Part shown: positions 42,095-62,526 of the stretch, one piece after another
Layout: the number at the start of each line of letters is the position of its first letter
How positions within the stretch are numbered: the stretch's first letter is position 1
Source of the DNA: Candidatus Omnitrophota bacterium
GTDB lineage: Bacteria; Omnitrophota; Gorgyraeia; JABMRN01; RBG-13-46-9
Assembly: GCA_030605095.1 (NCBI GenBank)
Contig: JAUWBJ010000001.1
Location: forward strand, 10,942-74,941
Direction: 5' to 3'
DNA length: 64,000 nt
The notes under the pieces: generated by a model
Told to the model about the DNA's origin: nothing
Databases searched by the model: none
What the model saw: only the letters and a program-made list of their open reading frames with translations
Program-made: the position numbers and the translations under genes

Positions 42095-43001
42095 GAAAAA
42101 CAAACTGGCCGGAAAAATCGATAGATTAAAGAAGAAGAGAAAAGCCGTCATATTAGTTCATAACTACCAGCTTCCCGAGATTCAGGATATCGCTGATTAT
42201 GTCGGCGATTCTTTGGCATTGAGCAGGACTGCCAGCCAAACCCGCGCTAAGATAATCATTTTTTGCGGGGTCCACTTTATGGCCGAGACAGCATCTATCC
42301 TTTGCCCTAATAAAAAAGTCCTCATGCCCGATATAAATGCCGGATGCCCCATGGCAGACATGATTACCAAGGAGGGTTTGAGAACTTTAAAAAAAGAACA
42401 TCCTCATGCAGCGGTAGTAGGCTATGTTAATACCAGCGCCGAAGTCAAAACAGAGCTCGATATCTGCTGCACGTCTACCAACGCAATCGAAATAGTAAAT
42501 TCATTGAAAAATACCAGAGAAATCATCTTCGTTCCCGATAAATATTTAGCTGACTATGCTTCCAAAAAAACCGGGCGTAAATTAATTGTCTGGGATGGAT
42601 ATTGCCCTAGCCACGTTAAGATTCTGCCCGAGCATATTTTAAAACAGAAGCGCCGCCACCCCAAAGCCAAAGTTATTGTCCATCCGGAATGCACCCCACC
42701 TGTTATCGACCTCGCCGACGAAGCCCTATCCACCGAAGGCATGTGCAAATACGCGAAGTTAACCGACGCCTCTCGGATAATTGTGGGTACAGAGATAGGC
42801 CTGCTCCATAGATTGCGGAAGGAAAACCCCAAAAAGAAATTCTACCCCGCTTCAGAAGAAGCCATATGCCCCAACATGAAGATGAATACATTAGAGAAGG
42901 TATTATGGTCGCTGGAAGACATGAAATACGAAGTCAAAGTGCCCGAGGACGTTCGAATTAAAGCCATAAAAGCGGTAGATAGAATGTGCCGGATCGGATG
43001 A
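42087..43001 (+). CDS. nadA: quinolinate synthase
   Basis: NadA fold with three Cys ligands, VILVHNYQLPEIQD. Confidence 0.85.
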   Translation: MDKKNKLAGKIDRLKKKRKAVILVHNYQLPEIQDIADYVGDSLALSRTASQTRAKIIIFCGVHFMAETASILCPNKKVLMPDINAGCPMADMITKEGLRTLKKEHPHAAVVGYVNTSAEVKTELDICCTSTNAIEIVNSLKNTREIIFVPDKYLADYASKKTGRKLIVWDGYCPSHVKILPEHILKQKRRHPKAKVIVHPECTPPVIDLADEALSTEGMCKYAKLTDASRIIVGTEIGLLHRLRKENPKKKFYPASEEAICPNMKMNTLEKVLWSLEDMKYEVKVPEDVRIKAIKAVDRMCRIG

Positions 43002-43051
43002 AAAAAGTCTACATCCGGACTTTCGGATGCCAGATGGAAACACCACAATAG
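42998..43051 (+). repeat. copy C of degenerate methylthiotransferase 5' fragment (MKKVYIRTFGCQMETPQ*)
   Basis: 17-codon ORF whose ATG overlaps nadA stop (ATGA); encodes the MTTase N-terminal FGCQM motif; homologous to miaB start at 61333 and to copies at 47214, 49854 and 55529. Confidence 0.7.
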
Positions 43052-43057
43052 TAAAAT

Positions 43058-44320
43058 ATGAAGGTTAATAAAATATATACATTAATTTTTGTCTGCATGT
43101 TATTAAATCCCCATTTTGCGTATTCTGAAGAAGCAATTACATGGGAGGAATGCGTGCATATAGCTATTGGAAACAATCCAGAATTAATATCAGCAGCTGA
43201 AAAGATCAAACAAGCAAAAAAAGATAAAAATATTAATTTAAGCTCGATACTTCCCCAGATAGATAGCGCAGCAAGCACCAAGAGAGGAAAGACCTCGGGT
43301 AATAAGGCGGCAAATACTCATTCCTACAGCGTAACCGGTAAACAATTAGTTTTCGATGGATTTAAGACATACAGTGAAGTATCTAGTGCCCATAAAACCA
43401 TTCAGGCCGAAGAGTATAATTACGCCGTTACGTCTTCTAATATAAGATTGAATTTGAGAAATGCTTTTGTTAGCCTTATGAGAGCCGAGGAGCTGGTGAA
43501 TATTACAGAGAACATCGCCCGCCGCAGGCGTCAAAATCTTGAACTTGTTAAATTGCGATACGAAGGCGGAAGGGAACATAAAGGTGCCCTACTCACTGCC
43601 GAAGCGGATATGGCACAGGCAGAATTTGAAATTTCCCAAGCTAAAAGAAGCATTTCCTTATCACAAAGAGAATTATTTAAAGAACTCGGCCTTACTAAGA
43701 TGGAGCCAGTGAAAGCAAAAGGAGAATTCATCCTTGAGAAGGATTATACTGCTAAACCTGATCTGGATTTTCTTGCAAATACTACTCCGTTTCTCCAGGA
43801 ATTAATAGCAAAAAAAGAAGCTATACGTTATGATTTTCAGTCTGAAGTAGCTGATTTTTTTCCTGAAGTTTACCTGAATGCATCTCTTGGCAAAACAGGC
43901 GATAGCTTTCTACCCCAAAACGAAGAATGGTCAGCGGGTGCATCTATATCATTACCGCTATTTGAAGGCGGAAGCCGTCTAGCAGAAGTCTCTAAAGCCA
44001 AGTCCAAGCTCAATCAGGCAGAAGCTGATGAGCGAAGCGGAAGAGATAGCGTGCTAGTTACGTTAGAGAGGACATGGAAGAACCTACAGGATGCGATAAC
44101 GAATGTTTCCGTACAGAAAAAGTTCCTCAAAGCTAACGAAGAACGCGCGAAGATAACCAAAACTCAATACGAGAGCGGTTTAGCCTCGTTCAACGACTGG
44201 ATAATAATAGAAGACAATCTTGTCAATTCTCAAAAAGCATATTTAAATGCGGAGAACGATATGTTAATTGTTGAAGCTTACTGGATTCAGGCAATAGGAG
44301 GAACCTTAGAATATGATTAA
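43058..44320 (+). CDS. tolC: TolC-family outer membrane efflux protein
   Basis: Signal peptide, two OEP repeats. Confidence 0.8.
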   Translation: MKVNKIYTLIFVCMLLNPHFAYSEEAITWEECVHIAIGNNPELISAAEKIKQAKKDKNINLSSILPQIDSAASTKRGKTSGNKAANTHSYSVTGKQLVFDGFKTYSEVSSAHKTIQAEEYNYAVTSSNIRLNLRNAFVSLMRAEELVNITENIARRRRQNLELVKLRYEGGREHKGALLTAEADMAQAEFEISQAKRSISLSQRELFKELGLTKMEPVKAKGEFILEKDYTAKPDLDFLANTTPFLQELIAKKEAIRYDFQSEVADFFPEVYLNASLGKTGDSFLPQNEEWSAGASISLPLFEGGSRLAEVSKAKSKLNQAEADERSGRDSVLVTLERTWKNLQDAITNVSVQKKFLKANEERAKITKTQYESGLASFNDWIIIEDNLVNSQKAYLNAENDMLIVEAYWIQAIGGTLEYD

Positions 44321-45266
44321 GAATAGAACAAAACCAATAGCAGCTGTAGGGTTTTTAATAATTATTACTGTATTGTTTATCCGATGGAAGCAAGGAGGAA
44401 CGGAAGACAATCTTAAAACAAAGATAATAAATCCCATTATCGGAGATGTTGCCATAATGGTTACTACCACAGGAGTAATTGAGCCCCAAAACAGACTTGA
44501 GATAAAACCCTCTATCGGGGGAAGGATTGACGAAATTATAGTAAAGGAAGGGGACCATGTTAAAGAGGGCGAGATTCTGGCATGGATGAGCTCAACAGAA
44601 AGAGCCGCCCTCATAGATGCGGCACGTTCGCAAGGGGATGAGGCTTTACGTTACTGGAAAGATGCCTACAAAAAGACCCCCATTATTTCACCGCTTGATG
44701 GAGAAGTGATAGTTCGTGCAGTTGAGCCCGGTCAGACTGTTACGACATCTGATGCCGTTTTGGTTTTATCAGACCGGCTAGTGGTAAGCGCTCAGTTTGA
44801 CGAGACAGATATAGGCAGGATCAAAATAGGCCAGGACGCCTTTATAACATTGGATGCATATCCTGATGTCAAGATAGAAGGTATTGTCGATCATATAGCG
44901 TATGAATCCGAGATAGTTAATAATGTTACTATATATAATGTGGATATACTTCCGAAAGAAATGCCTGAAATTTTGCGCTCTGGTATGAGCGTTACCGCTC
45001 TAGTTGTAGAAAAAAAGAGAACCGATGTCACAACAATCCCTTCCAGTGCGATTCATTACGACGGTAAAAGACAGTTTGTCCTGCTGAAAACTAAAAGTGG
45101 AAAGACCGTTGAGAGTGATATTACTGTAGGCTTAAATAACGAAAAGATAGCCGAGGTGATTTCAGGTTTGAGCGTAGATGATAATGTTGTAATTCAAGAT
45201 ACTGCATATCTGCCGAAGAGAAAAAGTACTGGAACCAATCCGTTTATGCCTTCCAGGAGAAGATGA
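44313..45266 (+). CDS. macA: HlyD/MacA-family periplasmic adaptor
   Basis: N-terminal TM anchor, biotinyl-lipoyl-like and beta-barrel regions. Confidence 0.75.
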   Translation: MIKNRTKPIAAVGFLIIITVLFIRWKQGGTEDNLKTKIINPIIGDVAIMVTTTGVIEPQNRLEIKPSIGGRIDEIIVKEGDHVKEGEILAWMSSTERAALIDAARSQGDEALRYWKDAYKKTPIISPLDGEVIVRAVEPGQTVTTSDAVLVLSDRLVVSAQFDETDIGRIKIGQDAFITLDAYPDVKIEGIVDHIAYESEIVNNVTIYNVDILPKEMPEILRSGMSVTALVVEKKRTDVTTIPSSAIHYDGKRQFVLLKTKSGKTVESDITVGLNNEKIAEVISGLSVDDNVVIQDTAYLPKRKSTGTNPFMPSRRR

Positions 45267-47221
45267 TAGAGTTAAAAAATATATATAAGACATACGGCAA
45301 AGGCGACATCGCTGTTTGCGCCCTAAAGAATATCTCTCTGAAAATAAATCAGGGGGAATTTTTAGCAATAATAGGGCCATCCGGTTCCGGGAAGTCCACG
45401 CTCCTGCACATACTGGGATTTTTAGACCGTCCGGATAAAGGCTCATACAAGATTTTTGGCACTGACATTTCAAGATTATCTGACGATCAATCGGCGTATC
45501 TAAGAAATAGACTTGTCGGTTTTGTGTTTCAGCAGTTTCATTTGCTTCGAAGGACCAGTGCGCTAGAGAACGTAGAATTACCCCTTAGCTATTCCGGCGA
45601 AAGAGGCTTGCTTGAAAATGCGGTGCAAAAATTAGATTCCGTGGGATTAACCGAGCGCGCAAAACACCTGCCGAGTGAATTATCGGGCGGGGAGCAACAA
45701 AGGGTTGCGATAGCGCGCGCTTTAGTTAATAATCCACTAATAATTTTTGCTGATGAGCCCACAGGGAACCTCGATACCAAAAGCGAAGAGGAGATTGTTA
45801 AAATACTTAAAGGGTTAAATGACCGGGGCAAAACCATTATTATGGTAACGCACGAAAAGGAGATAGCCGGGCACGCAAAAAGAATTTTGACGATGCGTGA
45901 TGGCGAGATTATTTCAGACGAAAAAAAAGATAGAAGCAATATTTCAGGTGAAAGCAAAATATCTATCCAGAATATACTTAGCGAAACCCATTCGTATCTT
46001 GGCAAGATTGAATTCGCGGAGCATATTCGCCAGTCGTTTCGAGCTATTTTGACCAATAAAGTAAGGTCTTTTCTTTCAATGCTTGGGATTTTATTTGGTG
46101 TAGCCGCAGTTATAGCAATGCTGGCTCTTGGCCAGGGAGCCAAGGCTTCCATGGAGGCAAGGATTAAGAGCCTGGGCTCTAATCTCTTATCAATACAGGG
46201 TGGTTCGGGAAGAGCTAGAGGCGCAATGCGTGCCGCCGGTTCTGTAACACGTTTTATGCAAGGTGACATAGATGCTATCGCAGGTCTAAAACCCATGGTG
46301 AAAAGAGCAGCCGGGTATGCAAATGGAAGCGGGCAGATTGTATATATGAATGAAAACTGGAATACGCGGGTAGAGGGCGTAGGTTACGATTATGGTCAGA
46401 TGCGAGCTACTATCCCTGAAATTGGCAGATGGTTTACTAAAGAAGAGATAACCCGGCGCGATAAAGTAGTCATACTTGGATTGACAGTAGTGGATAAGCT
46501 TTTTGACAACCGAAATCCGATCGGTGAAACAGTAAAAATAAATCGTATAAATTTTAAGGTTATAGGCATTGTGCCCGAAAAGGGAGCTAGGGGCTGGCGC
46601 GATCAAGATGATATTATTTATATACCTCTTACAACAGCCATGTATAGGGTGCTGGGCAAAAATTATTTGGATGGTATTTATGCTGAAATAAGCGATGTCG
46701 AATCGATTGAAGAAGCAGAGAAAAGAATCAAGCAGCTTATTATAAAAAGGCATCGTATATCCCAAAACCCCGACGATTATTTTCATATGCATAATATGAG
46801 TGAATTTCAGGAAATGCTAACGAGCACGACGCAGACTATGAGTATTCTTTTAGGTTGCATCGCTTCGATATCTCTTTTGGTAGGTGGTATAGGAATTATG
46901 AATATAATGCTTGTCTCAGTTACGGAGCGTACGCGCGAAATCGGATTACGCAAAGCAGTTGGCGCACGAGGCAAAGATATAATGACCCAATTTCTTATTG
47001 AATCGATTGCTATGACTTTAAGCGGCGGCATTATAGGTATTTTGCTCGGTGTAGCAACCTCTATATTATTGTCATTATTGGTCGGATGGGCTACTAAAGT
47101 TACTATTTCAAATATTTTCCTTGCCGCTGGGTTTTCAATCGCCATAGGAATGTTTTTCGGTCTTTGGCCGGCAAAGAAAGCATCTGAACTCAATCCTATA
47201 GAGGCTTTAAGATATGAATGA
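45263..47221 (+). CDS. macB: MacB-type ABC transporter (ATPase + FtsX permease fusion)
   Basis: GPSGSGKSTLL Walker A, LSGGEQQRVAIARAL signature, C-terminal FtsX four-TM domain. Confidence 0.85.
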   Translation: MIELKNIYKTYGKGDIAVCALKNISLKINQGEFLAIIGPSGSGKSTLLHILGFLDRPDKGSYKIFGTDISRLSDDQSAYLRNRLVGFVFQQFHLLRRTSALENVELPLSYSGERGLLENAVQKLDSVGLTERAKHLPSELSGGEQQRVAIARALVNNPLIIFADEPTGNLDTKSEEEIVKILKGLNDRGKTIIMVTHEKEIAGHAKRILTMRDGEIISDEKKDRSNISGESKISIQNILSETHSYLGKIEFAEHIRQSFRAILTNKVRSFLSMLGILFGVAAVIAMLALGQGAKASMEARIKSLGSNLLSIQGGSGRARGAMRAAGSVTRFMQGDIDAIAGLKPMVKRAAGYANGSGQIVYMNENWNTRVEGVGYDYGQMRATIPEIGRWFTKEEITRRDKVVILGLTVVDKLFDNRNPIGETVKINRINFKVIGIVPEKGARGWRDQDDIIYIPLTTAMYRVLGKNYLDGIYAEISDVESIEEAEKRIKQLIIKRHRISQNPDDYFHMHNMSEFQEMLTSTTQTMSILLGCIASISLLVGGIGIMNIMLVSVTERTREIGLRKAVGARGKDIMTQFLIESIAMTLSGGIIGILLGVATSILLSLLVGWATKVTISNIFLAAGFSIAIGMFFGLWPAKKASELNPIEALRYE

Positions 47222-47249
47222 AAAGGTTTATCTCCGCAATTTTGGATGA
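47214..47249 (+). repeat. copy D of degenerate methylthiotransferase 5' fragment (MNEKVYLRNFG*)
   Basis: Overlaps macB stop; nucleotide similarity to miaB 5' end (TTTATCTCCGCAATTTTGGATGACC vs TTTTCATCCGCAGTTTTGGATGCCA). Confidence 0.6.
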
Positions 47250-47265
47250 CCGTACGTAAGTGAAA

Positions 47266-48438
47266 ATGAAAAACTCAATTAAATTTTTAATCATTGGCGG
47301 TGTATTTTTAGGGTTTTATTATTTACCTATTGAATTATTACCTTTTCGAAACCCTATATTTGAAGCGCTAGCTTTGGCTAAGTGGTATGCCAGAGAACAT
47401 GTATTATTGTGTTTAGTGCCAGCTTTCTTTATAGCAGGAGCAATATCTGTTTTTGTAAGCCAGGCAGCTGTTATTAAGTATTTTGGAGCGAAGGCCAAGA
47501 AGATATTAGCTTACAGCGTAGCATCTGTGTCTGGAAGCATATTAGCTGTTTGTTCCTGTACGGTCCTGCCTCTATTTTCAGGTATTTATAAGCGCGGAGC
47601 CGGCTTAGGGCCCGCTATCGCATTTCTCTATTCCGGCCCTGCCATCAATGTATTAGCTATAATTTTTACAGCTAAAGTTTTAGGATGGGAGCTTGGCCTT
47701 GCAAGGGCAATAGGAGCAGTAGTCTTTAGTGTAATTATCGGTTTTTTAATGCATCTAATATTTATTAAAGAAGAAAGACGGCGTCACGCAGAAGGTAACT
47801 TTTCAGTACCCGAAGAAGAAGCATCAAGACCATTATGGAAAAACGCAATATATTTTGCCTCTATGGTTGGGATTTTAGTATTTGCTAATTGGACAAAATC
47901 CGGTTCATCAAATACGGGAATATGGGTAAACATATATCATTCTAAATGGATAATTACATCTTTTTTTGTGGTAGTATTGGCAGTAATATTGATAAGCTGG
48001 TTTAAGAAAGACGAGCTTGGCAAGTGGGTAAAGTCCAGCTGGGAATTCGTTCTTCAAATACTACCTTTACTTCTTTTCGGAGTATTAGTTGCGGGATTTC
48101 TTCTTGGCAGGGTAGGGCATGAAGGCATAATTCCCTCAAGATTTGTTGCACGATTAGTCGGAGGTAATTCATTATTTGCCAATTTCTTTGCTTCAATATT
48201 TGGCGCATTTATGTATTTTGCTACACTTACAGAAGTGCCTATACTACAAGGCTTAATTGGTGCAGGCATGGGCAAAGGTCCTGCATTGGCGTTATTATTG
48301 GCAGGTCCGGCATTGAGTTTGCCTAGTATGCTTGTAATCCGAAGTGTTATAGGAACGAAAAAAACTATCGTGTATATATTATTGGTTATTATTATGGCTA
48401 CTCTAAGCGGGATTTTATTTGGAATTATAGTTACATAA
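47266..48438 (+). CDS. DUF318/ArsP-like permease
   Basis: 8-10 TM protein with conserved AVCSCTVLP (CSC) motif as in ArsP organoarsenical permeases. Confidence 0.65.
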   Translation: MKNSIKFLIIGGVFLGFYYLPIELLPFRNPIFEALALAKWYAREHVLLCLVPAFFIAGAISVFVSQAAVIKYFGAKAKKILAYSVASVSGSILAVCSCTVLPLFSGIYKRGAGLGPAIAFLYSGPAINVLAIIFTAKVLGWELGLARAIGAVVFSVIIGFLMHLIFIKEERRRHAEGNFSVPEEEASRPLWKNAIYFASMVGILVFANWTKSGSSNTGIWVNIYHSKWIITSFFVVVLAVILISWFKKDELGKWVKSSWEFVLQILPLLLFGVLVAGFLLGRVGHEGIIPSRFVARLVGGNSLFANFFASIFGAFMYFATLTEVPILQGLIGAGMGKGPALALLLAGPALSLPSMLVIRSVIGTKKTIVYILLVIIMATLSGILFGIIVT

Positions 48439-48448
48439 AGGAGAAAAA

Positions 48449-48679
48449 ATGAAAATAGAGATACTTGGTATGGGATGCCCTAAGTGCAAGATGCTTTATG
48501 AGAACACAAAGAAAGCTGTTAGTGAGACAGGCGTTCAGGCTGAAGTGCTCAAAGTGGAAGATATGGATAAAATTACAAATTATGGCGTAATGATGACACC
48601 AGCTCTTGTTATTGACGGAAAGGTGAAAACAACAGGTAAGATACCGTCAGCAGAGGATATTAAAAAATGGTTGGCATAA
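48449..48679 (+). CDS. small thioredoxin-fold redox-active disulfide protein
   Basis: 76 aa, CPKC motif, TM0979-like family. Confidence 0.7.
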   Translation: MKIEILGMGCPKCKMLYENTKKAVSETGVQAEVLKVEDMDKITNYGVMMTPALVIDGKVKTTGKIPSAEDIKKWLA

Positions 48680-49086
48680 AACGGTTTTTAATTATTCTTA
48701 TCGTAGGGGTTTTTCTAATTAACGCATCTTCCGCATTCTGCGATAACGGTAAAATTATAGTTTATTATTTTCACGGAAGCTTTCGTTGCCCTACTTGTCG
48801 GAATTTAGAACAATATGCCAAACAAACGATTCAAAATAATTTTAAAAAAGAGTTGGCAGAAGCAAAGATCATATTTAAAACAGTAAATGTTGAAGAAAAA
48901 GAGAATGAACATTTTGTTAACGATTACCAGCTTTACACAAAATCATTGGTTTTATCTTTAGTAAAAGATAATAAAGAGGTAAAATACAAAAATCTTGATA
49001 AAATCTGGGAATACGTAAGAAACAAAATGCAATATACAGATTATGTTAAAAGCGAGGCCGAAAATTTCCTGAAGGATTTAAAATGA
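48667..49086 (+). CDS. secreted CxxC protein (thioredoxin-like?)
   Basis: Signal peptide, YYFHGSFRCPTC motif. Confidence 0.45.
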   Translation: MVGIKRFLIILIVGVFLINASSAFCDNGKIIVYYFHGSFRCPTCRNLEQYAKQTIQNNFKKELAEAKIIFKTVNVEEKENEHFVNDYQLYTKSLVLSLVKDNKEVKYKNLDKIWEYVRNKMQYTDYVKSEAENFLKDLK

Positions 49087-49775
49087 CAGAGATTTTCTTT
49101 GCTTTTGGCTCTGCCATCTGGCTAGGTATGCTTACTTCGATTAGTCCTTGCCCTTTAGCGACTAATGTTGCCGCTGTCTCTTTTTTGTCAAAGAAAATAA
49201 ATCATCCGAAAGCGGTGTTATGGTCGGGAAGCGCTTATACATTTGGGCGCATGATTGCTTATGCTATTTTGGGTATGATTATTATAACGTCTATCGCTAG
49301 CGTTCCTTCTGTGGCGAATTTCCTGCAAAAATACATGAACAGAATATTAGGTCCTCTATTGCTTGTGGTTGGGCTATTTCTTTTGAATGTCATACGACTT
49401 AATATTTCAGGTTTTACGCTTTCGAAAGAAAAGCAGGAATCCTTAGCTAAGTCGGGAGCAAAAGGTGCGTTCTTGTTAGGGGCTATTTTTGCGCTTTCAT
49501 TCTGCCCGATTTCAGCAGCATTATTTTTTGGCAGCCTTATTCCTTTGGCACTAAACAGCAAAGCAGGTATAGTATTACCTTTCTTTTATGGCATAGGCAC
49601 GGGACTGCCGGTCATGGTTTTTGCTATGGGAATTGCGCTTGGCATATTATCAGCTTCACACTGGTTTCATAAAATGGCTACGGTTGAGAAGTATACAAGA
49701 AGAATAACAGGTATTATATTTGTGTTAGTTGGTTTATATTTTATATGGAACTACATCTTTGCAATTTTTAAGTAA
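49083..49775 (+). CDS. ccdA: CcdA/DsbD-family transmembrane thiol-disulfide transporter
   Basis: SPCPL and FCP Cys motifs in TM1/TM4. Confidence 0.75.
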   Translation: MTEIFFAFGSAIWLGMLTSISPCPLATNVAAVSFLSKKINHPKAVLWSGSAYTFGRMIAYAILGMIIITSIASVPSVANFLQKYMNRILGPLLLVVGLFLLNVIRLNISGFTLSKEKQESLAKSGAKGAFLLGAIFALSFCPISAALFFGSLIPLALNSKAGIVLPFFYGIGTGLPVMVFAMGIALGILSASHWFHKMATVEKYTRRITGIIFVLVGLYFIWNYIFAIFK

Positions 49776-49788
49776 TAAACTTTCAACT

Positions 49789-49883
49789 CAGATGAACGAG
49801 TGGGACTTTTTAGAAAAAGTAAATTACCACGACTTTAATATAATCAAAGAGTTATGAAAAAGATATACCTCCGCCGATATTGA
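49789..49883 (+). repeat. copy A: shared leader (CAGATGAACGAGTGGGAC...) + degenerate MTTase 5' fragment (MKKIYLRRY*)
   Basis: 18-nt identical leader shared with copy B, then ATG 49854 mini-ORF resembling MKKVYIRTFG. Confidence 0.6.
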
Positions 49884-53740: not shown

Positions 53741-53790
53741 GGAGAATGCTTAGATGTTAAAATGCCACACGCAACCGAAGGTTTAATTTT

Positions 53791-54171
53791 ATGAAATATA
53801 AATTCGCAACTGCGATAAGCTGTATTGATGGGAGAACTCAGAAGCCTGTAATTGATTTTGTGAGAAAAAGAATCTCAGTCGATTATGTTGATATGATAAC
53901 CGAACCCGGTCCTGATAAAATTTTGAGCAAAAACAAGCAAAAAAATCTTATTAAATCTATTCAACGTAAAATATTAATTTCCATAGAAAAACATAAGTCA
54001 AAACACATCATTATTGTAGGGCATTACGGATGTGCCGGTAATCCTGTTGGCGAGAAAGAACATCGCAAGCAGATAAAAAGAGCAATGCAGATTATCAATA
54101 GCTGGGATCTGAAACTATCTGTTCGCGGCATATGGTTGGATAAGGATTGGAAAGCTACTTTTATTTCATGA
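53791..54171 (+). CDS. small protein with beta-carbonic-anhydrase-like CxDxR / HxxC motifs
   Basis: SCIDGR and GHYGCAG motifs, only 126 aa. Confidence 0.3.
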   Translation: MKYKFATAISCIDGRTQKPVIDFVRKRISVDYVDMITEPGPDKILSKNKQKNLIKSIQRKILISIEKHKSKHIIIVGHYGCAGNPVGEKEHRKQIKRAMQIINSWDLKLSVRGIWLDKDWKATFIS

Positions 54172-54255
54172 ATAAAAAAAATATATATGGACTCTGGGCT
54201 GGCCGTATAAAAGATTCTTGCATGCGGATTTTACATTTGTTACTATTATAATATT

Positions 54256-55431
54256 ATGGAGGAAAAAATGAATACTAGTTCTTGGCTTTCACAAATTTCT
54301 TTTAAACAGCGAATTTGGTTGTTTTCGGCTTTAGCGGGAATGCTTGCGATCGTAGCCCTTGGAATTTTGATGGACTCACCGGGTGAGTTAAAAGAAACAA
54401 CCAATTTCAACATTGATATGTCTATTCGAGATATTGCCCCCAAACTTGGAGTTACAGGTAAAGGCCTTGCCAGGGAACTTGAACTGCCGCTTGACGTTTC
54501 TAAGGAAAAACCAGTTCGAACATTAGGTGTGGCACGCGAAGAACTTGATCATGCCATTGAACATATTCTATCCCATCGTGATGCTACGCTTAAATATTGT
54601 GTTTATGCGGCACTGGTTCTCTTGGGACTTGTATTTCTTGTGAGGCTAGGGCGTCCCGATGGCTCTGATATTAAAAATCGCCGTACTTGGTACCCAAAAA
54701 CCCCATATGTTATTGCTCTCTTGTTTTCTGTAATAGTAGCCGGATTCATTCTTGGCAAATCACCTAATCCCATGGAGGGTACAGTTAAAATTTTCAAGTC
54801 CATGATAGGTCTTTATCCCGATCCAATGCTTAAACTAGTAGCCTTTACCTTCTTTATTATATTAGCCATTGTTGGGAATAAGATGATTTGTGGCTGGGCG
54901 TGCCCTTTTGGCGCTTCGCAAGAGCTTATTTACAGCATACCAATTTTGCGAAAAATCAAAAAAAGGAAACTTCCATTTGTATTCACAAATATAATTCGTG
55001 TAGGCCTTTTTATTGCTGTGCTTCTTCTTATGTTTGGAATCATTGGAGGACGCAGGGGATTTATAATTTACCACTATCTTAACCCCTTTAACCTATTTAA
55101 TCTTGATTTCGAAGCATTCAGTATTCTGCTGACAGTAATCATTGCCTTGTTGGTATCATTCACTATCTACCGCCCATTTTGTCAGTTCATTTGTCCTTTT
55201 GGCCTTGTTTCCTGGATAGTTGAGCGATTCAGTATTTTCCGTGTTCGAATTGACAAAGAGAAATGTACCCAATGCGGTGCTTGCATAAAGGCATGCCCCC
55301 TAGAAGCCGCAGAAGGCCGGGTTAAGGGCAAGAAAATGCCGGCAGATTGTTTTAGTTGTGCTCGTTGCTTGAATGTTTGTCCGGTTGATGCCATTCAGTA
55401 TGCATCTTCTTTAAAGAAAGGCATAAAATAA
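54256..55431 (+). CDS. NapH/MauN-like membrane polyferredoxin
   Basis: CGWACPFG and CQFICPFG membrane Cys motifs plus C-terminal 2x CxxCxxCxxxCP. Confidence 0.65.
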   Translation: MEEKMNTSSWLSQISFKQRIWLFSALAGMLAIVALGILMDSPGELKETTNFNIDMSIRDIAPKLGVTGKGLARELELPLDVSKEKPVRTLGVAREELDHAIEHILSHRDATLKYCVYAALVLLGLVFLVRLGRPDGSDIKNRRTWYPKTPYVIALLFSVIVAGFILGKSPNPMEGTVKIFKSMIGLYPDPMLKLVAFTFFIILAIVGNKMICGWACPFGASQELIYSIPILRKIKKRKLPFVFTNIIRVGLFIAVLLLMFGIIGGRRGFIIYHYLNPFNLFNLDFEAFSILLTVIIALLVSFTIYRPFCQFICPFGLVSWIVERFSIFRVRIDKEKCTQCGACIKACPLEAAEGRVKGKKMPADCFSCARCLNVCPVDAIQYASSLKKGIK

Positions 55432-55462: not shown

Positions 55463-55615
55463 CAGATGAACGAGTGGGACGGTTTAGCAATCGAAAATTT
55501 TATATAACATAAAGAATATAAATAAGTTATGAAAAAAGTCTACATCCGTACTTTCGGATGGCCGAAGGTTACGTTGGCTCGGGATGGCATTGGAGCTGTT
55601 AAGGAAGATAAGTGA
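55463..55615 (+). repeat. copy B: shared leader + degenerate MTTase 5' fragment (MKKVYIRTFGWPKV...*)
   Basis: Leader CAGATGAACGAGTGGGAC identical to copy A; ATG 55529 fragment 35/38 nt identical to copy C. Confidence 0.7.
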
Positions 55616-55673
55616 TTATGAATAGAAGAGTTAGGATAATTTTCAGAATACAAGAAAAGATGAATTAAAAAAG

Positions 55674-58600
55674 ATGGAAAAATCTTTAGGCATATGTATA
55701 GGAGCATCAACTATAAGGATTGTTGAGCTCCTCTGGAACAATGGAGAATTTAGCATAGGAAAGACCTCTGTAATGAGCCACCAGTGCAATCCGAAGAACA
55801 TATTTTTGGAAGAGATTAAGAAATTTGACTTTCAATCTTATGATTATGCTTGCATAACAGGGAGAAGATTTAAAGACGCTATAAGTTTACCTAAGATAAC
55901 AGAGCCCAAGGCTACAGAATATGCACTAAAACATTACCTGAGAGGAAAGGGGGAAAGATTTAATGCCCTAATAAGCCTTGGAAGCGAAAACTTCATCCTG
56001 TATGAATTGGATGAGGGGGGAAATATAATTACGGTCCAAACAGGAAACAAATGCGCTTCAGGAACTGGAGAATTCTTTCTGCAACAGATAAGGCGAATGA
56101 ACGTTGATCTGAATAAGACTATCAGGCTGGCCAAACACTCAGAGCCCTACTATGTATCTGGAAGATGTTCTGTGTTCTGCAAAAGTGACTGTACTCATGC
56201 CCTCAATAAAGGCATACCTGTTGGCAGGGTGTGCGCTGGCCTTGGGAATATGATTGTTGAGAAGATTTTAGAACTTCTCCGGTCTACAAAAAATGAAGAT
56301 ATCCTTCTTGCGGGAGGGGTTACAAAAAATAGTTTCGTTATTGAAAGACTGAATAAAAAGATAAAGAACCTGGTTATACTGGAGCACGCCGATATTTTTG
56401 AGGCTTTAGGAGCAGCCATATTTGCTTATGAAAAAAAGAAAAAACCTTATACCATGATGCTCAAAGAGGAGAAGACATCCTTCACCACCCTGCCACCGTT
56501 AGAGGAATCACGGAAACTGGTTAGGTTCGAGAACCATGAGATGGGTATTGTCACCGAGGGCGATGAGTACATTCTGGGTTTAGATGCTGGTTCAACAACA
56601 ACTAAAGCCATACTATTAAGAACAAAGGATGACAAGATAGTTGCATCAGTTTACCTCAGAACCAGTGGAGATCCTGTTAAGGCATCCAGGCAGTGCTATG
56701 CTGAGATTAACACAAAGTTACGTGGAACAAAAATAGACATAATAGGGCTGGGGGTTACGGGGTCAGGAAGAAAAATTGCAGGGCTCTGCGCGTTAACTGA
56801 TGGCATAATAAATGAGATAATCGCTCATGCAACTGCTGCAGCATTTTTTGATAAAGAGGTTGATACGATTATAGAGATCGGTGGCCAGGACGCAAAATAT
56901 ACCTATCTTGTGAACGGGGTTCCTTGCGATTATGCCATGAACGAGGCCTGTTCTGCCGGAACAGGTTCTTTTCTTGAGGAGGCAGCAAAAGAAAGCCTTG
57001 ACATAAACTATCTTGATATCCAGGATATTGCATTAAAGGCAAAAAATCCGGCCAACTTCAATGACCAATGCGCAGCCTTCATAAGTAGCGACATAAAAAA
57101 TGCTTCCCATGAAAGTATAAGCAAGGAAGATATAGTTGCAGGCCTGGTTTACTCTATTTGCATGAATTATAACAACAGGGTAAAAGGCTTAAGGAAAGTC
57201 GGGAAAAAGATATTTATGCAAGGAGGTGTCTGCTATAATAATGCGGTGCCCCTGGCAATGGCAGGTATATTAAGAAAAGAGATTACCGTACCCCCTGAAC
57301 CCGGTCTTATGGGCGCTTTTGGCGTTGCCTTGGAGATAAAAAAAAGAATTGCTATGGGTTTGATGAAAAAATCCAGATTTTGCCTGAAAGAACTTGCCGG
57401 TAGGGGGGTTGAATATGGAAAAAGCTTTACCTGCCCTGGAGAACTTGAAAATTGCGATAGGGGTTGCACTATAAACATAATAAGCTTGAATGGGAAGAAT
57501 TATCCTTTTGGAGGGATATGCAACAAATATTACAATATCATGCATCATTTATTTATTGATCCAAAACCCTTTGATATCGTTGACAGAAGACAGAAGCTTG
57601 TTTTTGATTGTGGTAAAGAAAAAGGTTCGGCAAACCCCATTAGAAATCATAGATTTTCTAATGGGGCAAGGATTTCTAACGGGGCAAAAAGAGTAGGAAT
57701 CTCAAGGTCTTTTCTTGCCAACCTGCTCTATCCCCTGTATTACCATTTCTTTTCTGAACTGGGTTTAGGTGTAGTATTATCAGAGGCTGTTGATAGGGAG
57801 GGGGTAAAGAGAACCTGCTCTTCTTTTTGTTTCCCTGCGGAGATTAGCTACGGGATGTTTATGGATCTGGTTAAAAAGAAGCCCGATTATATATTTCTTC
57901 CCCAAATTAGTGAACTTTATGTAGAGAGAAGTCAAAGCTACGAGCCTGAGCATCAAAGCTCATGTCTCATATTGCAGAGTGAGCCCTATTACCTGAGAAG
58001 CACATTCAGAGATATTGATATTCCCATAATCTCTCCGGTTTTGAACTTCTCCCGGGGCTGGGAAAGCACCCAAGAGCGGTTTGTCGAAATTGGCAAGGAG
58101 CTCGGATATGATAAAGATAAATCAACAGGTGCCTTCAGGTATGGGCTAGCCAAACAAAACGAGTTTTTTAAGAAGAAAAAAGAGCTGGGGGATAAGGTAC
58201 TAAAGGAAATAGAGAATGATAAATCAAAGATAGGAATAGTCCTGTTTGGGAGACCTTATAATGCATTTGCTGATGAAGCTAATTTAGGCATACCCCGGAA
58301 ATTTGCTTCTCGAGGCGTTTACATCATCCCCTTTGACTGCCTGCCTTACGAGCATGAAGTCTCTATAGAGAATATGAACTGGGCTCTTGGCCAGGAGATT
58401 ATTAAGGCCGCCCATTTTGTCAAAAAGCACCAGCAGCTTTTCGGAACCTTCGTAACCAATTTCAGTTGTGGACCTGACTCGTTTATAGTAGGGTATTTTA
58501 GGGATATAATGAACACCAAACCGTCGCTAACCCTGGAGCTTGACTCACATAGCGCTGATGCCGGGATTAATACAAGGATAGAGGCATTCCTTGATATTGT

Positions 58601-59987
58601 GATAAGGTATAGAAAGCTCGCAATTCGGGATAGGGAGGAACTTCCCTTTACAAGAGCAGAACTTGTCTGGAAAAATGGAAAGCCGCTTTACATATCAAGT
58701 GAGAATGAATTATATTCGTTAAAGGATCCGCGAATAAAAATAATTATCCCCTCAATGGGTAGAGCTGCGACAGAACTTATATCTGCGGCATTTAGGGGGC
58801 TTGGATTTAATGCGGAGGCTGTGCCCCTTCCCGATTTTAAGACCTTGATGATCGGGCGTAGCAACACATCATGTAAGGAATGCCTTCCCTTGATACTGAC
58901 GGTAGCCTCGGTTTTGGATTATATCAAAAAAAGAAAGAATAAAGATGAATTGTTGTTGTACCTTATGCCAACTGTTAGCGGGAACTGCAGGTTCTCGCAA
59001 TATTATGTGTTTATTAAAAGGTTACTTGAGAAAAAGAGAATAAAAAACGTTGCCCTTCTCACCTTTACCAGTGAAAATGGTTATGCTGGCCTGGGTCCTT
59101 TGAGGGCAATTACGTTGTTGAAAGCAGGTATAACCGCGGATATCATGGATGATATTAAGAATGCGCTGCTTGTTCTGGCGATGGACAAGCAAAAGGCAGA
59201 TCGCGTATTCAATGCAGGGTGGGATAGGCTTATAGCCTGTTTTGAAAATGGATGTAAAGGATTTTATAAGACTTTAAAGGAGATTTCATCTGATCTGGCA
59301 AAGATCAAGCTTAGATACGAGATAAGCAAAGCCAAAAAGGTCCTTTTGGCAGGCGAAATTTATGTCAGGAAGGATGAGTTTTCATCTCAGGGTATTATTA
59401 CCGCCCTTAAAAAGAGAGACATTATAGTGAAGAGGTCTCCGGTGATGGAATGGATATATTATGTTGACCATATTGTTAAAAACCAAATCAAACCCAAATT
59501 TACGCTTGCTAAGAAAACAGAGTTCTTTTTGAGGCAGGTTATAAAGACCGGACTCGAGAAAAAGATAAAGCATATTCTTTCATATTCCGGGCTCTATGAA
59601 TATGAAACTATTGACATTGATGAAATTATGAGGATAGGAAGCGCCTTTATCGATCCAGCCCTTACCGGTGAAGCAATCCTTGTAGTAGGCGCATTCTTTA
59701 AGGAGATTTTAAAGACTGTTCATGGCGTTATTTCAATCGGTCCCTTTTCATGTCTTCCTACAAGGGTAATAGAATCGATATTGTCTCAAGAATCAAGAGT
59801 GGCAGGAAATAGCCGCCTCGATTTTTTGGAAAACCTTAATGAACTACAAAGGTTCGATACCTTACCTTTTTTCTCTCTCGAATGCGACGGCAATCCCTTT
59901 CCTCAGATAATAGAATCGAGGATTGAAGCCTTCTCCCTTCAGGTCGAACGGCTTTATGATACCCTCAATTCTGATAGAATAAAATAA
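55674..59987 (+). CDS. 1437-aa fusion: two BadF/BcrA/HgdC-type activase ATPase domains + DUF2229 + 2-hydroxyacyl-CoA dehydratase-like domain
   Basis: ICIGASTIRIV and GLDAGSTTTKAILL acetate/sugar-kinase-fold starts with Cys pairs, long C-terminal dehydratase-like region. Confidence 0.65.
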   Translation: MEKSLGICIGASTIRIVELLWNNGEFSIGKTSVMSHQCNPKNIFLEEIKKFDFQSYDYACITGRRFKDAISLPKITEPKATEYALKHYLRGKGERFNALISLGSENFILYELDEGGNIITVQTGNKCASGTGEFFLQQIRRMNVDLNKTIRLAKHSEPYYVSGRCSVFCKSDCTHALNKGIPVGRVCAGLGNMIVEKILELLRSTKNEDILLAGGVTKNSFVIERLNKKIKNLVILEHADIFEALGAAIFAYEKKKKPYTMMLKEEKTSFTTLPPLEESRKLVRFENHEMGIVTEGDEYILGLDAGSTTTKAILLRTKDDKIVASVYLRTSGDPVKASRQCYAEINTKLRGTKIDIIGLGVTGSGRKIAGLCALTDGIINEIIAHATAAAFFDKEVDTIIEIGGQDAKYTYLVNGVPCDYAMNEACSAGTGSFLEEAAKESLDINYLDIQDIALKAKNPANFNDQCAAFISSDIKNASHESISKEDIVAGLVYSICMNYNNRVKGLRKVGKKIFMQGGVCYNNAVPLAMAGILRKEITVPPEPGLMGAFGVALEIKKRIAMGLMKKSRFCLKELAGRGVEYGKSFTCPGELENCDRGCTINIISLNGKNYPFGGICNKYYNIMHHLFIDPKPFDIVDRRQKLVFDCGKEKGSANPIRNHRFSNGARISNGAKRVGISRSFLANLLYPLYYHFFSELGLGVVLSEAVDREGVKRTCSSFCFPAEISYGMFMDLVKKKPDYIFLPQISELYVERSQSYEPEHQSSCLILQSEPYYLRSTFRDIDIPIISPVLNFSRGWESTQERFVEIGKELGYDKDKSTGAFRYGLAKQNEFFKKKKELGDKVLKEIENDKSKIGIVLFGRPYNAFADEANLGIPRKFASRGVYIIPFDCLPYEHEVSIENMNWALGQEIIKAAHFVKKHQQLFGTFVTNFSCGPDSFIVGYFRDIMNTKPSLTLELDSHSADAGINTRIEAFLDIVIRYRKLAIRDREELPFTRAELVWKNGKPLYISSENELYSLKDPRIKIIIPSMGRAATELISAAFRGLGFNAEAVPLPDFKTLMIGRSNTSCKECLPLILTVASVLDYIKKRKNKDELLLYLMPTVSGNCRFSQYYVFIKRLLEKKRIKNVALLTFTSENGYAGLGPLRAITLLKAGITADIMDDIKNALLVLAMDKQKADRVFNAGWDRLIACFENGCKGFYKTLKEISSDLAKIKLRYEISKAKKVLLAGEIYVRKDEFSSQGIITALKKRDIIVKRSPVMEWIYYVDHIVKNQIKPKFTLAKKTEFFLRQVIKTGLEKKIKHILSYSGLYEYETIDIDEIMRIGSAFIDPALTGEAILVVGAFFKEILKTVHGVISIGPFSCLPTRVIESILSQESRVAGNSRLDFLENLNELQRFDTLPFFSLECDGNPFPQIIESRIEAFSLQVERLYDTLNSDRIK

Positions 59988-60072
59988 GCCTTCGGTTTTT
60001 GTAATCGAGCTGAAAATAGAGAAATAAAATGACAACTTTAGGAAAATCAAGAGGTTGTGACAATACTTAGAT

Positions 60073-60156: not shown

Positions 60157-61287
60157 ATGAAGTATATTTGGGGACGTAAAAACTGGTTTGATTTCAAATA
60201 TGACGATACGGTTTTACTTAAGCCATTAAGCGAGCTTAGAGTCTTGCAGGGGAAGCTATTGGGCCGTATCGCGTCCCTTGACATTAAGCTTGAAACTGAG
60301 GCTCAGGGAGCTATTTTGGTTGAAGAAGCCATCCGGACTGCGGAAATCGAAGGGCAAAAACTAAACCACGAAGCGGTTCGATCATCCGTAGCCGTGAGGC
60401 TTGGACTACCGCACGGTATCGGCCCGCATGACAGGCATGTTGATGGACTTGTGGATGTTCTCTTGGATGCGGTCCGTTTTCATGATAAACCCTTAACACT
60501 GGAACGGCTTAATGGCTGGCATGCGGCATTGTTCCCTTCAGGATATTCGGGCTTGCGAAAAATAAAAACAGGTAAAGTTCGAGGCAGCGAGCCTATGCAG
60601 ATTGTATCTGGACCCGTTGGTAAGGAAAAGGTGCATTTTGAGGCATTGCCGAAGGATCGCCTTGGTGAGGAGATGCGCCTTTTCCTGAAGTGGTGGAATT
60701 CGTCACAGGGGAGTATGGACGGTATCTTGCGAGCGGCCACGGCGCATTTACGTTTTTTGACAATTCACCCTTACGAAGACGGCAATGGACGTTTGGCTAG
60801 AGCCTTAACGGACATGGCTTTGGCTCAGGAGGAAAAACTAAAGGTGAGGTTTTATAGTGTCTCTTCCGAAATTATGCGCTCAAGGAGTAAATATTATAAA
60901 ATCCTTGAGGATGTGCAACAATGTCGTCTTGATGTGACAGAATGGTTTTTGTGGTTTGTCAAATGCGTTGCGGCATCTATTGAAAATTCACGCGATATTA
61001 TTGCGGGCGTATTCATGAAGGTTGATTTCTGGAATCAGCATGCCCAAGATGAGCTTAACGAGCGACAGAAAAAAGTTATTAATCGTATGTTAGAGACCGG
61101 GCCGGGTAATTTTGCCGGTGGACTAGCAACGCGCAAATATGTAAGTATTGCTAAGACGAGCCGTGCTACGGCATTCCGCGAGATTTCAGATATGCTTGAT
61201 AAAAAAATCCTGCGCCAATTGCCTGGCAAAGGCCGTAGCGTTCATTATGATCTAATCTGGCCGAGAACAGACAAACAAGAATCATGA
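60157..61287 (+). CDS. fic: Fic-family protein (DUF4172 N-domain, Fic core, C-terminal wHTH)
   Basis: HPYEDGNGRLARAL Fic motif; N-terminal MKYIWGRKNWFDFKYD; gene looks higher in GC than its surroundings by eye. Confidence 0.8.
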   Translation: MKYIWGRKNWFDFKYDDTVLLKPLSELRVLQGKLLGRIASLDIKLETEAQGAILVEEAIRTAEIEGQKLNHEAVRSSVAVRLGLPHGIGPHDRHVDGLVDVLLDAVRFHDKPLTLERLNGWHAALFPSGYSGLRKIKTGKVRGSEPMQIVSGPVGKEKVHFEALPKDRLGEEMRLFLKWWNSSQGSMDGILRAATAHLRFLTIHPYEDGNGRLARALTDMALAQEEKLKVRFYSVSSEIMRSRSKYYKILEDVQQCRLDVTEWFLWFVKCVAASIENSRDIIAGVFMKVDFWNQHAQDELNERQKKVINRMLETGPGNFAGGLATRKYVSIAKTSRATAFREISDMLDKKILRQLPGKGRSVHYDLIWPRTDKQES

Positions 61288-61332
61288 AGGGTTAAGGAGC
61301 TCATAGAATTGTTTAAATTTTAATGCAAACTT

Positions 61333-62526
61333 ATGCCAAAGAAGATTTTCATCCGCAGTTTTGGATGCCAGATGAATGTAAAAGATAGTGAGTTTATGGT
61401 GGGGCTCTTTTTGGAGAAGGGTTGTAAGCTTACTGATTCTCCGGAAGATGCCGATATCATTCTATTTAATACCTGCTCGGTGAGAGAACATGCCGAAGAA
61501 CGCGCTATAAGTAACATGGGGCATTTGATGAAACAATATAAGAACAAAGTATACGGCATGGTAGGATGTATGGCACAAGCATTGAAAGATAAACTTTTTG
61601 AAAGGTTGCCGGCGCTTGATCTTGTTTGCGGAACAGGAGAAATTGCAAGATTGCCGGAACTAGTCAAAGAGGCTGCAAAGAATAAAGTTTTAGCCCTTGA
61701 CAACTTAAATGCGCCTTTGCCCGAATTAAAGCCCTCTTACAGGCAAAGCAATAAACACGCCTATGTGTCCATAATGAGGGGATGTAATAATTTTTGTAGC
61801 TATTGTATTGTTCCATACGTGAGGGGAAAGGAGCGTTCGAGAAAAGTTGAAGATATCGTTAATGAGATAAAGGATTTGGCAGAGAGGGGTATTAAAGATA
61901 TTACGCTTTTGGGGCAGAATGTGAACTCATATATAGGAAGAGCGTATAACGTAGAGCGTATAGCGGATAGTAATAAGAAAAAAATGTGCAATTTTGTTCA
62001 ATTATTAAAATATATAAATAACATTGATGGCATTGAGAAGATTAGTTTTATGACCAGTCACCCTAAAGATGCAAATGTAGAATTGTTCAAAGCAATGAAA
62101 GAATCAGACAAGGTAGTTAAGCACCTTCATCTGCCTTTGCAATCCGGCTCTGATAGAATTCTAAAACTAATGAACAGGGGTTATACGAGAAGGAAGTATT
62201 TAAATCTTGTTAGAAAAGCAAGGAATATTATGCCTGGGCTTCGCCTAACGACAGATGTTATCGTCGGCTTTCCCACCGAGACAGAGAAAGATTTTAATGA
62301 TACCTTAAATTTGATGAAAGAGATAAAATTTGACCTGGCGTATATATTCAAATATTCGCCTCGTCCCGGAACAGGGGCAGCTCGCCTAAAAGACAGTATA
62401 CCGGAAGATACCAAAAAGAAGAGACACAAGATTCTGTTAGATTTGCAGAGAGAAATACACAGATTCATACAGATAAAAGAACAGATTCACACAGATAAAT
62501 TATGCGAAGAACTATCATCTTTTTAA
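61333..62526 (+). CDS. miaB: MiaB-like radical-SAM methylthiotransferase (no obvious TRAM domain)
   Basis: IRSFGCQMN MTTase N-domain, CNNFCSYC radical-SAM; ends about 20 aa after the radical-SAM core. Confidence 0.75.
   Translation: MPKKIFIRSFGCQMNVKDSEFMVGLFLEKGCKLTDSPEDADIILFNTCSVREHAEERAISNMGHLMKQYKNKVYGMVGCMAQALKDKLFERLPALDLVCGTGEIARLPELVKEAAKNKVLALDNLNAPLPELKPSYRQSNKHAYVSIMRGCNNFCSYCIVPYVRGKERSRKVEDIVNEIKDLAERGIKDITLLGQNVNSYIGRAYNVERIADSNKKKMCNFVQLLKYINNIDGIEKISFMTSHPKDANVELFKAMKESDKVVKHLHLPLQSGSDRILKLMNRGYTRRKYLNLVRKARNIMPGLRLTTDVIVGFPTETEKDFNDTLNLMKEIKFDLAYIFKYSPRPGTGAARLKDSIPEDTKKKRHKILLDLQREIHRFIQIKEQIHTDKLCEELSSF

Follow-up and report, generated by a model that had tools for sequence, protein, structure and literature searches.

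The window analysed here, a 64,000-nucleotide (nt) stretch of DNA from the metagenome-assembled genome of a Candidatus Omnitrophota bacterium, carries 18 kb of accessory gene blocks between nadA and the methylthiotransferase gene miaB, and these blocks have very probably piled up in tandem at a single attachment site in the miaB start. On the most fitting reading, tandem insertions, now largely fossil, accumulated at the attachment site of a large serine recombinase (LSR), a site that has the TG of the miaB Cys12 codon at its centre. Five clear displaced miaB 5′ ends lie between nadA and miaB (at 42998, 47214, 49854, 50993 and 55529), together with two weaker candidates (54168 and 60029), and the miaB-start repeats bound six or seven blocks. 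When all six frames of the 64 kb were searched with a regular expression for the MiaB N-terminus, no displaced end was found elsewhere. A nucleotide profile made from 21 starts, real and displaced, was run with nhmmer and scored five window sites, including the real miaB start, at E values of 1e-6 to 7e-3. The preliminary description of this DNA had listed four short open reading frames (mini-ORFs) as degenerate miaB starts; on re-reading the sequence all four were recovered with the coordinates and translations it gave, and the count rises to at least five fragments plus two candidates. It had also placed the start of the miaB-like gene at 61333, as MPKKIFIRSFGCQMN, where the gene indeed begins; it carries UPF0004 and Radical_SAM domains. 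The array is laid out as follows (position, strand, feature):

42087..43001, +, nadA (Pfam NadA, E 2e-123), the last housekeeping gene left of the array
42998..43051, +, J1, displaced miaB 5′ end (MKKVYIRTFGCQMETPQ-stop; nhmmer E 1e-6), central TG at 43028-43029
43058..47221, +, block 1: tolC-like OEP, membrane-fusion protein (MFP) and MacB-type ABC exporter (Pfam)
47214..47249, +, J2, displaced miaB 5′ end (MNEKVYLRNFG-stop; nhmmer E 6e-4), TG at 47247-47248
47260..49775, +, block 2: ArsP-type permease, small thioredoxin, 139-aa protein and DsbD/CcdA-like protein (Pfam)
49789..49806, +, 18-mer CAGATGAACGAGTGGGAC, copy 1 (exact repeat)
49854..49883, +, J3, decayed miaB 5′ end (MKKIYLRRY-stop), seen in the sequence, nhmmer E 8.4 only
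49903..50985, +, block 3: Acr3/SBF arsenite-type carrier (Pfam SBF)
50993..51025, +, J4, displaced miaB 5′ end (MKKVFLRTFG-stop), from repeat finding and regular expression, nhmmer E 7e-3
51029..54171, +, block 4a: P-type cation ATPase and Pro_CA_2 protein (Pfam)
54168..54201, +, J4b, candidate decayed fragment ATGAATAAAAAAAATATATATGGACTCTGGGCTG, then GCCGTA (junction motif; nhmmer E 2.6 only)
54256..55431, +, block 4b: NapH-like membrane polyferredoxin (Pfam Fer4_5/Fer4)
55463..55480, +, 18-mer CAGATGAACGAGTGGGAC, copy 2 (exact repeat)
55529..55625, +, J5, best-preserved junction: miaB 5′ mimic, TG (55559-55560) and complete right arm of the element's attachment site, attP (nhmmer E 2e-6)
55674..59987, +, block 5: 1437-aa BcrAD/BadFG activase with DUF2229 fusion (Pfam)
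60029..60070, +, J6, candidate displaced start (MTTLGKSRGCDNT-stop), a 13-codon ORF cut before the conserved core, in the start form used by miaB in the related locus L082
60065..61332, +, block 6: fic unit plus 45 nt, without counterpart in L082
60157-61287, +, DUF4172+Fic gene of block 6, with its own promoter-like site at 60072-60101
61333..62526, +, miaB with its present start MPKKIFIRSFGC (Pfam UPF0004 and Radical_SAM, no TRAM domain), TG at 61366-61367
62502..63287, +, TPR-SPOR gene, then miaA (Pfam), opening the conserved right flank

The ATG of J1 overlaps the nadA stop (ATGA) and J2 overlaps the macB stop by 8 nt, both as previously noted. J4 sits between acr3 and the P-type ATPase gene, and the J4b candidate overlaps the Pro_CA_2 stop. 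J1 and J5 are alike at 31 of 32 nt up to the TG, and at 34 of the 38 nt for which 35 matches had been reported. The J3 assignment rests on position and on the flank in common with J5 (repeat families D10/D11). The J4b core, GGACTCTGGGCTGGCCGTA, agrees with that of J5, GGACTTTCGGATGGCCGAA, in 15 of 19 positions; less probably, J4b is the remnant of a tolC start. Most stranded starts stop a few bases short of the next gene (3-20 nt from mini-ORF end to gene). The present miaB start is of the type that adjoins LSR genes, with the N-terminus found in L001, L003 and L177.

From the window alone it had been proposed that site-specific insertions struck the miaB 5′ end repeatedly, each one giving a new start and stranding the old one. 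The proposal is supported by relatives: the fic block is an insertion polymorphism coupled to a swapped N-terminus, fragment-punctuated arrays lie upstream of miaB in other Omnitrophota, four related loci have an LSR gene over the miaB start, and the DNA after the fragments corresponds to the tail-coding attP arm of that recombinase family. The right flank is fixed across Omnitrophota (miaB, TPR-SPOR, miaA, hflX, hrcA, grpE, dnaK, dnaJ), with the order miaB, TPR-SPOR, miaA kept in L164-L168, L173, L177 and L178; the content left of miaB is different in every genome compared and is interrupted by fragments of the same kind. L082, which is 96% identical to the window at the nucleotide level over the activase gene and 92% over miaB, lacks window positions 60065-61349 (the fic block), and the activase there runs directly into miaB. 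Its MiaB N-terminus is MTTLGKSRGCDNSGKRLYIRTFGCQMNVKD, unlike that of the window. L082 reads ATGACAACTTTAGG...GACAAT|TCCGGAAAGCGTCTCTACATCCGAACTTTCGGCTGTCAAATG in frame into miaB where the window breaks off after GACAAT, and over the ~40 nt up to CAGATG the two are only ~62% identical, as against 92% downstream. L083 (87% identical) has a third N-terminus and another gene upstream of miaB; with the swap in L082, this means that the miaB 5′ end is exchanged together with upstream DNA.

Arrays of their own, with MiaB mini-fragments between blocks that mostly end ...FG-stop or ...WG-stop, are present in L164, L166, L167 and L168. Over 6.6 kb, L166 and L168, whose MiaB is the same, show 99.56% identity; their synteny is lost at GGCTG|ACCG of one junction. 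The J5 junction recurs in L168 (86% identical at the amino acid level), and L166 has copies of the 139-aa protein and of CcdA, both 79% identical to those of the window and likewise encoded upstream of miaB. In L173-L176 the tolC-MFP-macB genes adjoin an intact miaB, whose start macB overlaps by 8 nt; this is the geometry of macB and J2 in the window, which makes J2 the stranded start of a macB-miaB junction that was once native. TolC, MFP and MacB of the window are 82, 82 and 76% identical to their L173 counterparts at the amino acid level, and Acr3, which occupies a different place in the L173 array, is 88% identical; the core proteins MiaB and TPR-SPOR reach 66 and 62%. Blocks common to the two genomes, closer than the core genes and reordered, point to block exchange, as judged from the sequences. 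The suggestion that nadA-miaB was the sole ancestral arrangement is not borne out by the relatives: nadA lies upstream of miaB in no fetched relative, the single locus with nadA has it downstream of miaB, and macB-miaB is the native junction observed instead. Matches listed in MiaB contig scans came mostly from distant phyla (at most 48% identity) and were kept as background; outside Omnitrophota, cases with one or two fragments occur among them, and an Elusimicrobia locus, L044, has the same TG|ACCGTA junction. In L084 (7513-9990; MiaB 49% identical), longer miaB 5′ fragments of 32 and 47 codons split small blocks of unknown genes that lie downstream of a P-type ATPase gene.

A recombinase is found at this position in relatives. 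L177 encodes a 553-aa LSR directly upstream of miaB, with Resolvase, Recombinase and Zn_ribbon_recom domains (Pfam) and an N-terminal YIRVSTEDQ motif, and homologues occupy the same spot in L001, L002 and L003. The LSR gene is read one base out of register with miaB; its frame crosses the miaB start (..ICQKKSTSGLSA) and stops at the TGA within CAG-ATG-AAY (CAGATGA) of miaB. Besides the LSR, L002 encodes an Xis-like helix-turn-helix protein and a terminase-small-like ORF, both read from the sequences, and L185, an IMG/VR contig, carries a terminase small subunit (Pfam) and an LSR that is 79% identical. In L185 the miaB mimic is followed by DNA that is not miaB, and the LSR ORF extends 21 codons further; this P-TG-P′ arrangement could be the free form or an internal array junction. 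Many of the best 120 database LSR representatives are 75-91% identical to the L177 protein, and the family also occurs in Elusimicrobia (P0327). About 69 of these 120 end ..S(A/D/V)(A/V/G)(R/K), a two-residue tail, which is the form that adjoins miaB in the four loci whose DNA context was examined, and about 32 have long tails, which fall into several classes and measure 9-28 residues. Two further mobile-element features were seen beside these recombinases, namely a 192-aa tyrosine recombinase of the Phage_integrase family downstream of the L185 LSR (11391-11969) and, immediately upstream of the L177 LSR (6890-8346), three ACGTAAAAGGGGACAT direct repeats with a split RAYT-like (IS200/Y1-type) gene.

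The DNA right of each junction's TG was translated in the recombinase frame and compared with LSR C-termini, shuffled queries serving as control. J5 reads KKSTSVLSD|GRRLRWLGMALELLRKISDYE-stop, 21 codons past the TG, which is the tail length of the intact L185 LSR. The tail in L168_881 is GQKLRWLEMALELLKKINGLD-stop and that in L166 is DRTCKYRQMILKILKKINGYE-stop. L164_7805 matched P0358 with a score of 104 (16 of 17 identical), L166_4896 matched P0305 (96) and P0283 (95), L166_6218 matched P0287 (71), L166_7445 matched P0333 (69), and J5 of the window matched P0283 (64; J5 shuffles at most 38); shuffled tail queries overall scored at most 33-50. Right of its TG, J1 continues CCAGATGGAAAC, ARWKHHNSKI-stop in the recombinase frame, which begins like tails of intact LSRs, e.g. 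P0334 (..SD|ARWPRYSK..); an ARW.. continuation is also present in L185. J2 is followed at 47249-47262 by the attP-arm remnant ACCGTACGTAAGTG, which matches ACCG(A/T)A(C/T)GTG(T/C)AAGTA of the L166/L168 junctions and ACCGTAGG of L044. Its tail in the recombinase frame starts DRT, and its DNA (TGACCGTACGTAAGTG) is of the class seen in L166, L168 and the Elusimicrobia locus. These matches identify the left ends of the blocks as the right arm of attP of the LSR family, and the sequence after the fragments is kept between unrelated cargo because this arm encodes the recombinase tail. A decayed continuation of miaB was also considered for this sequence and dropped, the recombinase tail giving the better fit in the frame analysis.

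Junctions of both expected hybrid types are present. A miaB start left of the TG is joined to recombinase-tail sequence on the right in J5, J1 and J2 and in L164, L166 and L168, and the 3′ end of the recombinase gene (the left arm) is joined to native miaB in L177, L001 and L002. In every well-preserved junction the sequence switches identity at the TG of codon Cys12, at least nine independent junctions break at this TG, and the crossover dinucleotide presumably lies there. Around the J5 TG the dyad CGTACTTTCGGA-TG-GCCGAAGGTTACG is complementary at 10 of 16 positions, and five other junctions reach 7-8 of 16, in each case best at zero shift; native miaB sites reach 5-6 of 16, with 4 of 16 expected by chance. 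The dyad is modest evidence, at the level of sequence, for the look expected of serine-recombinase sites.

These data suggest a model in which the first 12 codons of miaB (...ACN TTY GGN TG|Y CAR ATG AAY...) would be the attachment site targeted in Omnitrophota by an LSR family carried on integrative, partly phage-like elements. The left arm of attP would mimic the miaB start from ATG to GGNTG and, in recombinase-bearing elements, would also form the 3′ end of the LSR gene, one base out of register; the right arm would encode the last 17-28 residues of the LSR. Strand exchange at or beside the TG of the Cys12 codon would strand the old miaB start on the left, fused to the right arm, and the element's mimic would turn into the new miaB N-terminus. 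The right arm would often give an immediate TGA in the miaB frame, which explains the mini-ORFs that end ...FG-stop. Since the rebuilt junction again resembles a miaB start, further elements could enter and push the older blocks to the left; the next element would enter right of the rebuilt junction, and this fits with fic, the newest block, being the one that adjoins miaB. Recombinase genes may have been lost or never brought, and most junctions (J3, J4, J4b) would have decayed, leaving the cargo: efflux, arsenic and metal transport, redox functions and fic. Where a stranded start ends just ahead of the following gene (J1, J2, J4), it may serve to couple translation to that of the cargo. We infer this order of events, and the entry of all blocks by the LSR route, from the junctions.

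Several points weigh against this model. No recombinase or remnant of one was detected in the 64 kb by Pfam on + strand ORFs or by tblastn, where hits with E up to 10 were noise only; the window therefore holds relics and no LSR element, in line with the earlier view of a decayed array with no integrase left. The tail match is strong in the relatives and moderate for J5 of the window, and a whole-library search with the 30-residue J5 tail returned only two repeat-protein matches, nothing relevant. The dyad symmetry is modest (7-10 of 16), the attB site itself being barely symmetric, and J3, J4 and J4b are too decayed for arm assignment. The left junction of fic lies off the TG core, at the edge of the fic unit (promoter and gene) as it occurs in L169; a secondary deletion or illegitimate joining must be assumed at that point, and not every event need have been made by a recombinase. 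Some crossovers lie deeper in the gene, as the 32- and 47-codon fragments of L084 show, and homologous exchange between repeated junction modules would break L166 and L168 at the same place as the recombinase. Nor does the model account for the 18-mer CAGATGAACGAGTGGGAC upstream of J3 and J5.

Several of these points would be explained without a dedicated recombinase, by homologous or homology-facilitated illegitimate recombination of DNA from other Omnitrophota, made up of a gene and a miaB start, with the right join in the conserved miaB 5′ region and an illegitimate left join, followed by unequal crossing-over that shuffles, duplicates and deletes blocks. The off-core fic junction at the edge of a unit found elsewhere and the L084 fragments fit such a route, as do the tandem paralogous blocks of L166 with their near-identical junction modules, the overlap of macB and nadA with the fragments in the manner of native operon partners, and the closeness of the blocks common to the window and L173 relative to the core genes. 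We nevertheless consider it unlikely as the source of the array: at least nine independent junctions break at one TG, an open frame of conserved length that matches intact LSR tails lies right of that TG, the LSR gene is on site in four loci, and the same TG|ACCGTA junction recurs in an Elusimicrobia locus, in a phylum that also has the LSR family (P0327). Homologous exchange between modules probably contributes to duplication and loss, for example in the L166 tandem paralogues. The mini-ORFs could instead be functional leader peptides or translational-coupling devices kept for regulation; in favour of this, most of them end 3-20 nt ahead of the next gene start, and Planctomycetota loci have a conserved MiaB-like mini-ORF with a hairpin over the true start. 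This explanation is very improbable and largely refuted, as such mini-ORFs occur upstream of no other operon in the 64 kb (the preliminary description had named their recurrence genome-wide before many unrelated operons as a refutation of its reading), the copies decay to differing lengths and fall where blocks are present in one genome and absent from another and where synteny breaks, recombinase-tail sequence flanks them on the right, and no Rfam family match or excess of predicted structure was found. An integron-type system, in which a tyrosine integron integrase captures cassettes with folded attC sites, would share with the array its co-oriented, mostly promoter-less cargo blocks split by short conserved sites, and is the least credible of all. 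There is no IntI or other tyrosine recombinase in the window (Pfam found no Phage_integrase-family protein), eight junctions folded as single-stranded DNA gave z values of -1.7 to +1.3 against shuffles, and the sites mimic a gene start instead of forming imperfect palindromes of 60-150 nt; with neither IntI nor attC-like structure present, this explanation is already refuted.

A variant of the LSR model is a possibility that we hold tentatively, namely that the integrase-less blocks are no mere fossils and instead are working cassettes of an LSR-driven counterpart of the integron, mobilised in trans. Each block would retain P′ on its left and a miaB-start mimic on its right, an LSR acting in trans from a resident or visiting element might excise, reinsert and reorder the blocks at the miaB start, and the displaced miaB translation start would perhaps be reused to express incoming cargo. 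Strain-level cassette turnover at the TG core, with no recombinase gene among the fetched 10 kb (L166) or 3 kb (L168) upstream of miaB, fits with this, as do the common blocks in different orders across genomes and the right arms that keep an open 21-codon frame though detached from a recombinase gene. The preferred reading remains a largely fossil accretion.

Known island systems offer close parallels, and the array is most likely a new example of a known way of building islands; the new cassette-capture mechanism that had been suggested is not needed to explain it. Closest in working principle are the composite SCCmec/SCC (staphylococcal cassette chromosome) islands of staphylococci, in which the LSRs CcrAB/CcrC target the 3′ end of rlmH (orfX), units stack in tandem, many units lack a recombinase (pseudo-SCC), the cargo includes metal and arsenic resistance and target repeats mark the bounds. 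Both systems involve an LSR and a single site at one end of a conserved gene for RNA modification, and in both the units are stacked, are bounded by target repeats and often lack a recombinase. They differ in that SCC uses the rlmH 3′ end and no start is rebuilt, whereas here an element entering the miaB 5′ end must supply a start and N-terminus; moreover, attP here overlaps the 3′ end of the LSR's own gene, the host belongs to Omnitrophota, and the window has no recombinase or Ccr. SXT/R391, a single large conjugative element with a tyrosine integrase, enters the 5′ end of prfC and supplies a new 5′ coding end and promoter; it resembles the present case in entering a housekeeping gene at its 5′ end, but has no array of small cargo blocks. 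Integrons are similar in their one-directional array of small cargo units, with new units beside a fixed site, and differ in having an IntI, folded attC sites and a Pc/attI platform, all absent here, where the sites are double-stranded gene-start mimics.

Islands and prophages at dusA integrate into the 5′ end of a tRNA-modification gene, so that the island's 5′ end replaces that of the gene and a remnant is left at the far side; they use a tyrosine integrase family, and a MiaB-like gene (rimO) was struck by a mobile element in Polaromonas (PMC4482086). Tandem arrays find no mention in that report. The replacement of the 5′ end and the remnant are alike, whereas the stack here comprises up to seven blocks, and the equivalent position in relatives holds a serine recombinase in place of a tyrosine integrase of the DAI family. 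The tycheposons and tRNA-flanked islands of Prochlorococcus arise by repeated integration at one site that pushes older elements inward; they contain degenerate elements, partial target copies and adaptive cargo in a streamlined genome, 910 of 937 recombinases are of the tyrosine type, and the targets are tRNA genes (10.1101/2020.12.28.424599). Unlike these, the array described here has the start of a protein gene as its target and an LSR. Searches of the available literature library returned no report tying serine recombinases to miaB or Omnitrophota.

The analysis identifies the miaB start as a place where elements land repeatedly in Omnitrophota, a little-known phylum whose cells are very small, and the array explains the accumulation of accessory genes at miaB: efflux, arsenic and metal handling, Fic and, among those upstream of miaB in relatives, UV repair genes. 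A large, highly conserved serine recombinase family gains a defined natural target and attP. The position of attP inside the LSR's own 3′ end is unusual, and integration would swap a tail of 17-28 residues for one of two. Such recombinase/site pairs are raw material for DNA-integration tools. For annotation, the array explains the short MiaB-like ORFs strewn over the region and the start at Met14 in the public gene call for the window miaB (P0001, 384 aa); the true N-terminus is encoded from 61333 (region 61333-61374), and the call omits it together with the first cluster cysteine (FGC).

The fic unit (window 60062-61265) is 84% identical at the nucleotide level to a unit at an unrelated locus in L169, beside an AbiE pair. 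The listed cluster representatives of the DUF4172+Fic protein (window 60157-61287; L169 6001-7128) number more than 100, with several named Omnitrophota among them; at 79-89% identity the protein is far more conserved than MiaB (~60-70%), and this conservation at unrelated loci suggests recent spread. Besides the promoter-like site, a perfect 10-bp inverted repeat (GAAGCGATTA...TAATCGCTTC) lies upstream. Exact look-ups with the MiaB and Fic of the window yielded nothing or no more than a 3-kb Logan contig, an identical contig assembled in run SRR14872663. A scan of the array for promoters and terminators gave the same counts as shuffled sequence, that promoter-like site excepted. The fic gene had been thought richer in GC by eye, and its GC of 0.463 is indeed at the top of the range, without falling outside it. 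GC per block is 0.37-0.45, inside the range of the other genes (0.35-0.47), and a foreign composition of the blocks was rejected, both GC and GC3 being within the genome range. A structured RNA or tRNA as target was likewise set aside, as neither an Rfam family nor a tRNA was found in the window.

The 18-mer CAGATGAACGAGTGGGAC occurs exactly twice in the window (49789 and 55463), with 0.01 copies expected by chance. The two copies are identical, as had been reported, and lie 47-48 nt before the ATG, not about 45 nt. The 18-mer resembles miaB right of the core (QMNEWD vs QMNERD), and variants of it precede miaB in L165 and a fragment in L166. Some fragments are preceded by a conserved YTGRTTAGATTT..AGGTTAR motif, for which the model does not account either. 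Another motif, YTGRTTAGATTTRWYAGGTTAR, precedes displaced starts in the window (55440-55462) and in L164 (5405-5435 and 7765-7790), where the copy contains the palindrome CTAACCWGGTTAG. Scans of viral contigs with two right-arm motifs gave no match.

In Planctomycetota, a conserved MiaB-like mini-ORF (MSIRTIHIKTFGF...) sits ~100 nt upstream of miaB in L048 (3360-3480), L108 (5243-5370) and L122 (11-130) and ~47 nt upstream in L057 (9954-10010). A perfect hairpin spans the real miaB start codon in L048, L108 and L122; the L057 arrangement is shorter. This mini-ORF could be a leader/attenuator or a small att scar. One gene from miaB, the window carries a second 5′-end replacement, a 210-nt segment at 63301-63510 without counterpart in L082 and L083, inserted after codon 4 of their miaA start (TTGAGAAATAGA|GTAATAGTT). 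It gives miaA a new start (ATG 63452, MSREKLISPLLKQEALRRSS joined to VIVIIGPTAVGKT) and has no ORF of its own and no Rfam match.

Left of the array lie the genes for NifU, NifS, MnmA and NadA, preceded by hydrogenase, biotin and NAD genes. All credible genes of the 64 kb are on the + strand, and the cumulative GC skew climbs steadily across the window. A hexokinase with Hexokinase_1 (E 1e-63) and Hexokinase_2 (4e-62) domains, of a family more typical of eukaryotes, is encoded at 29950-31212.

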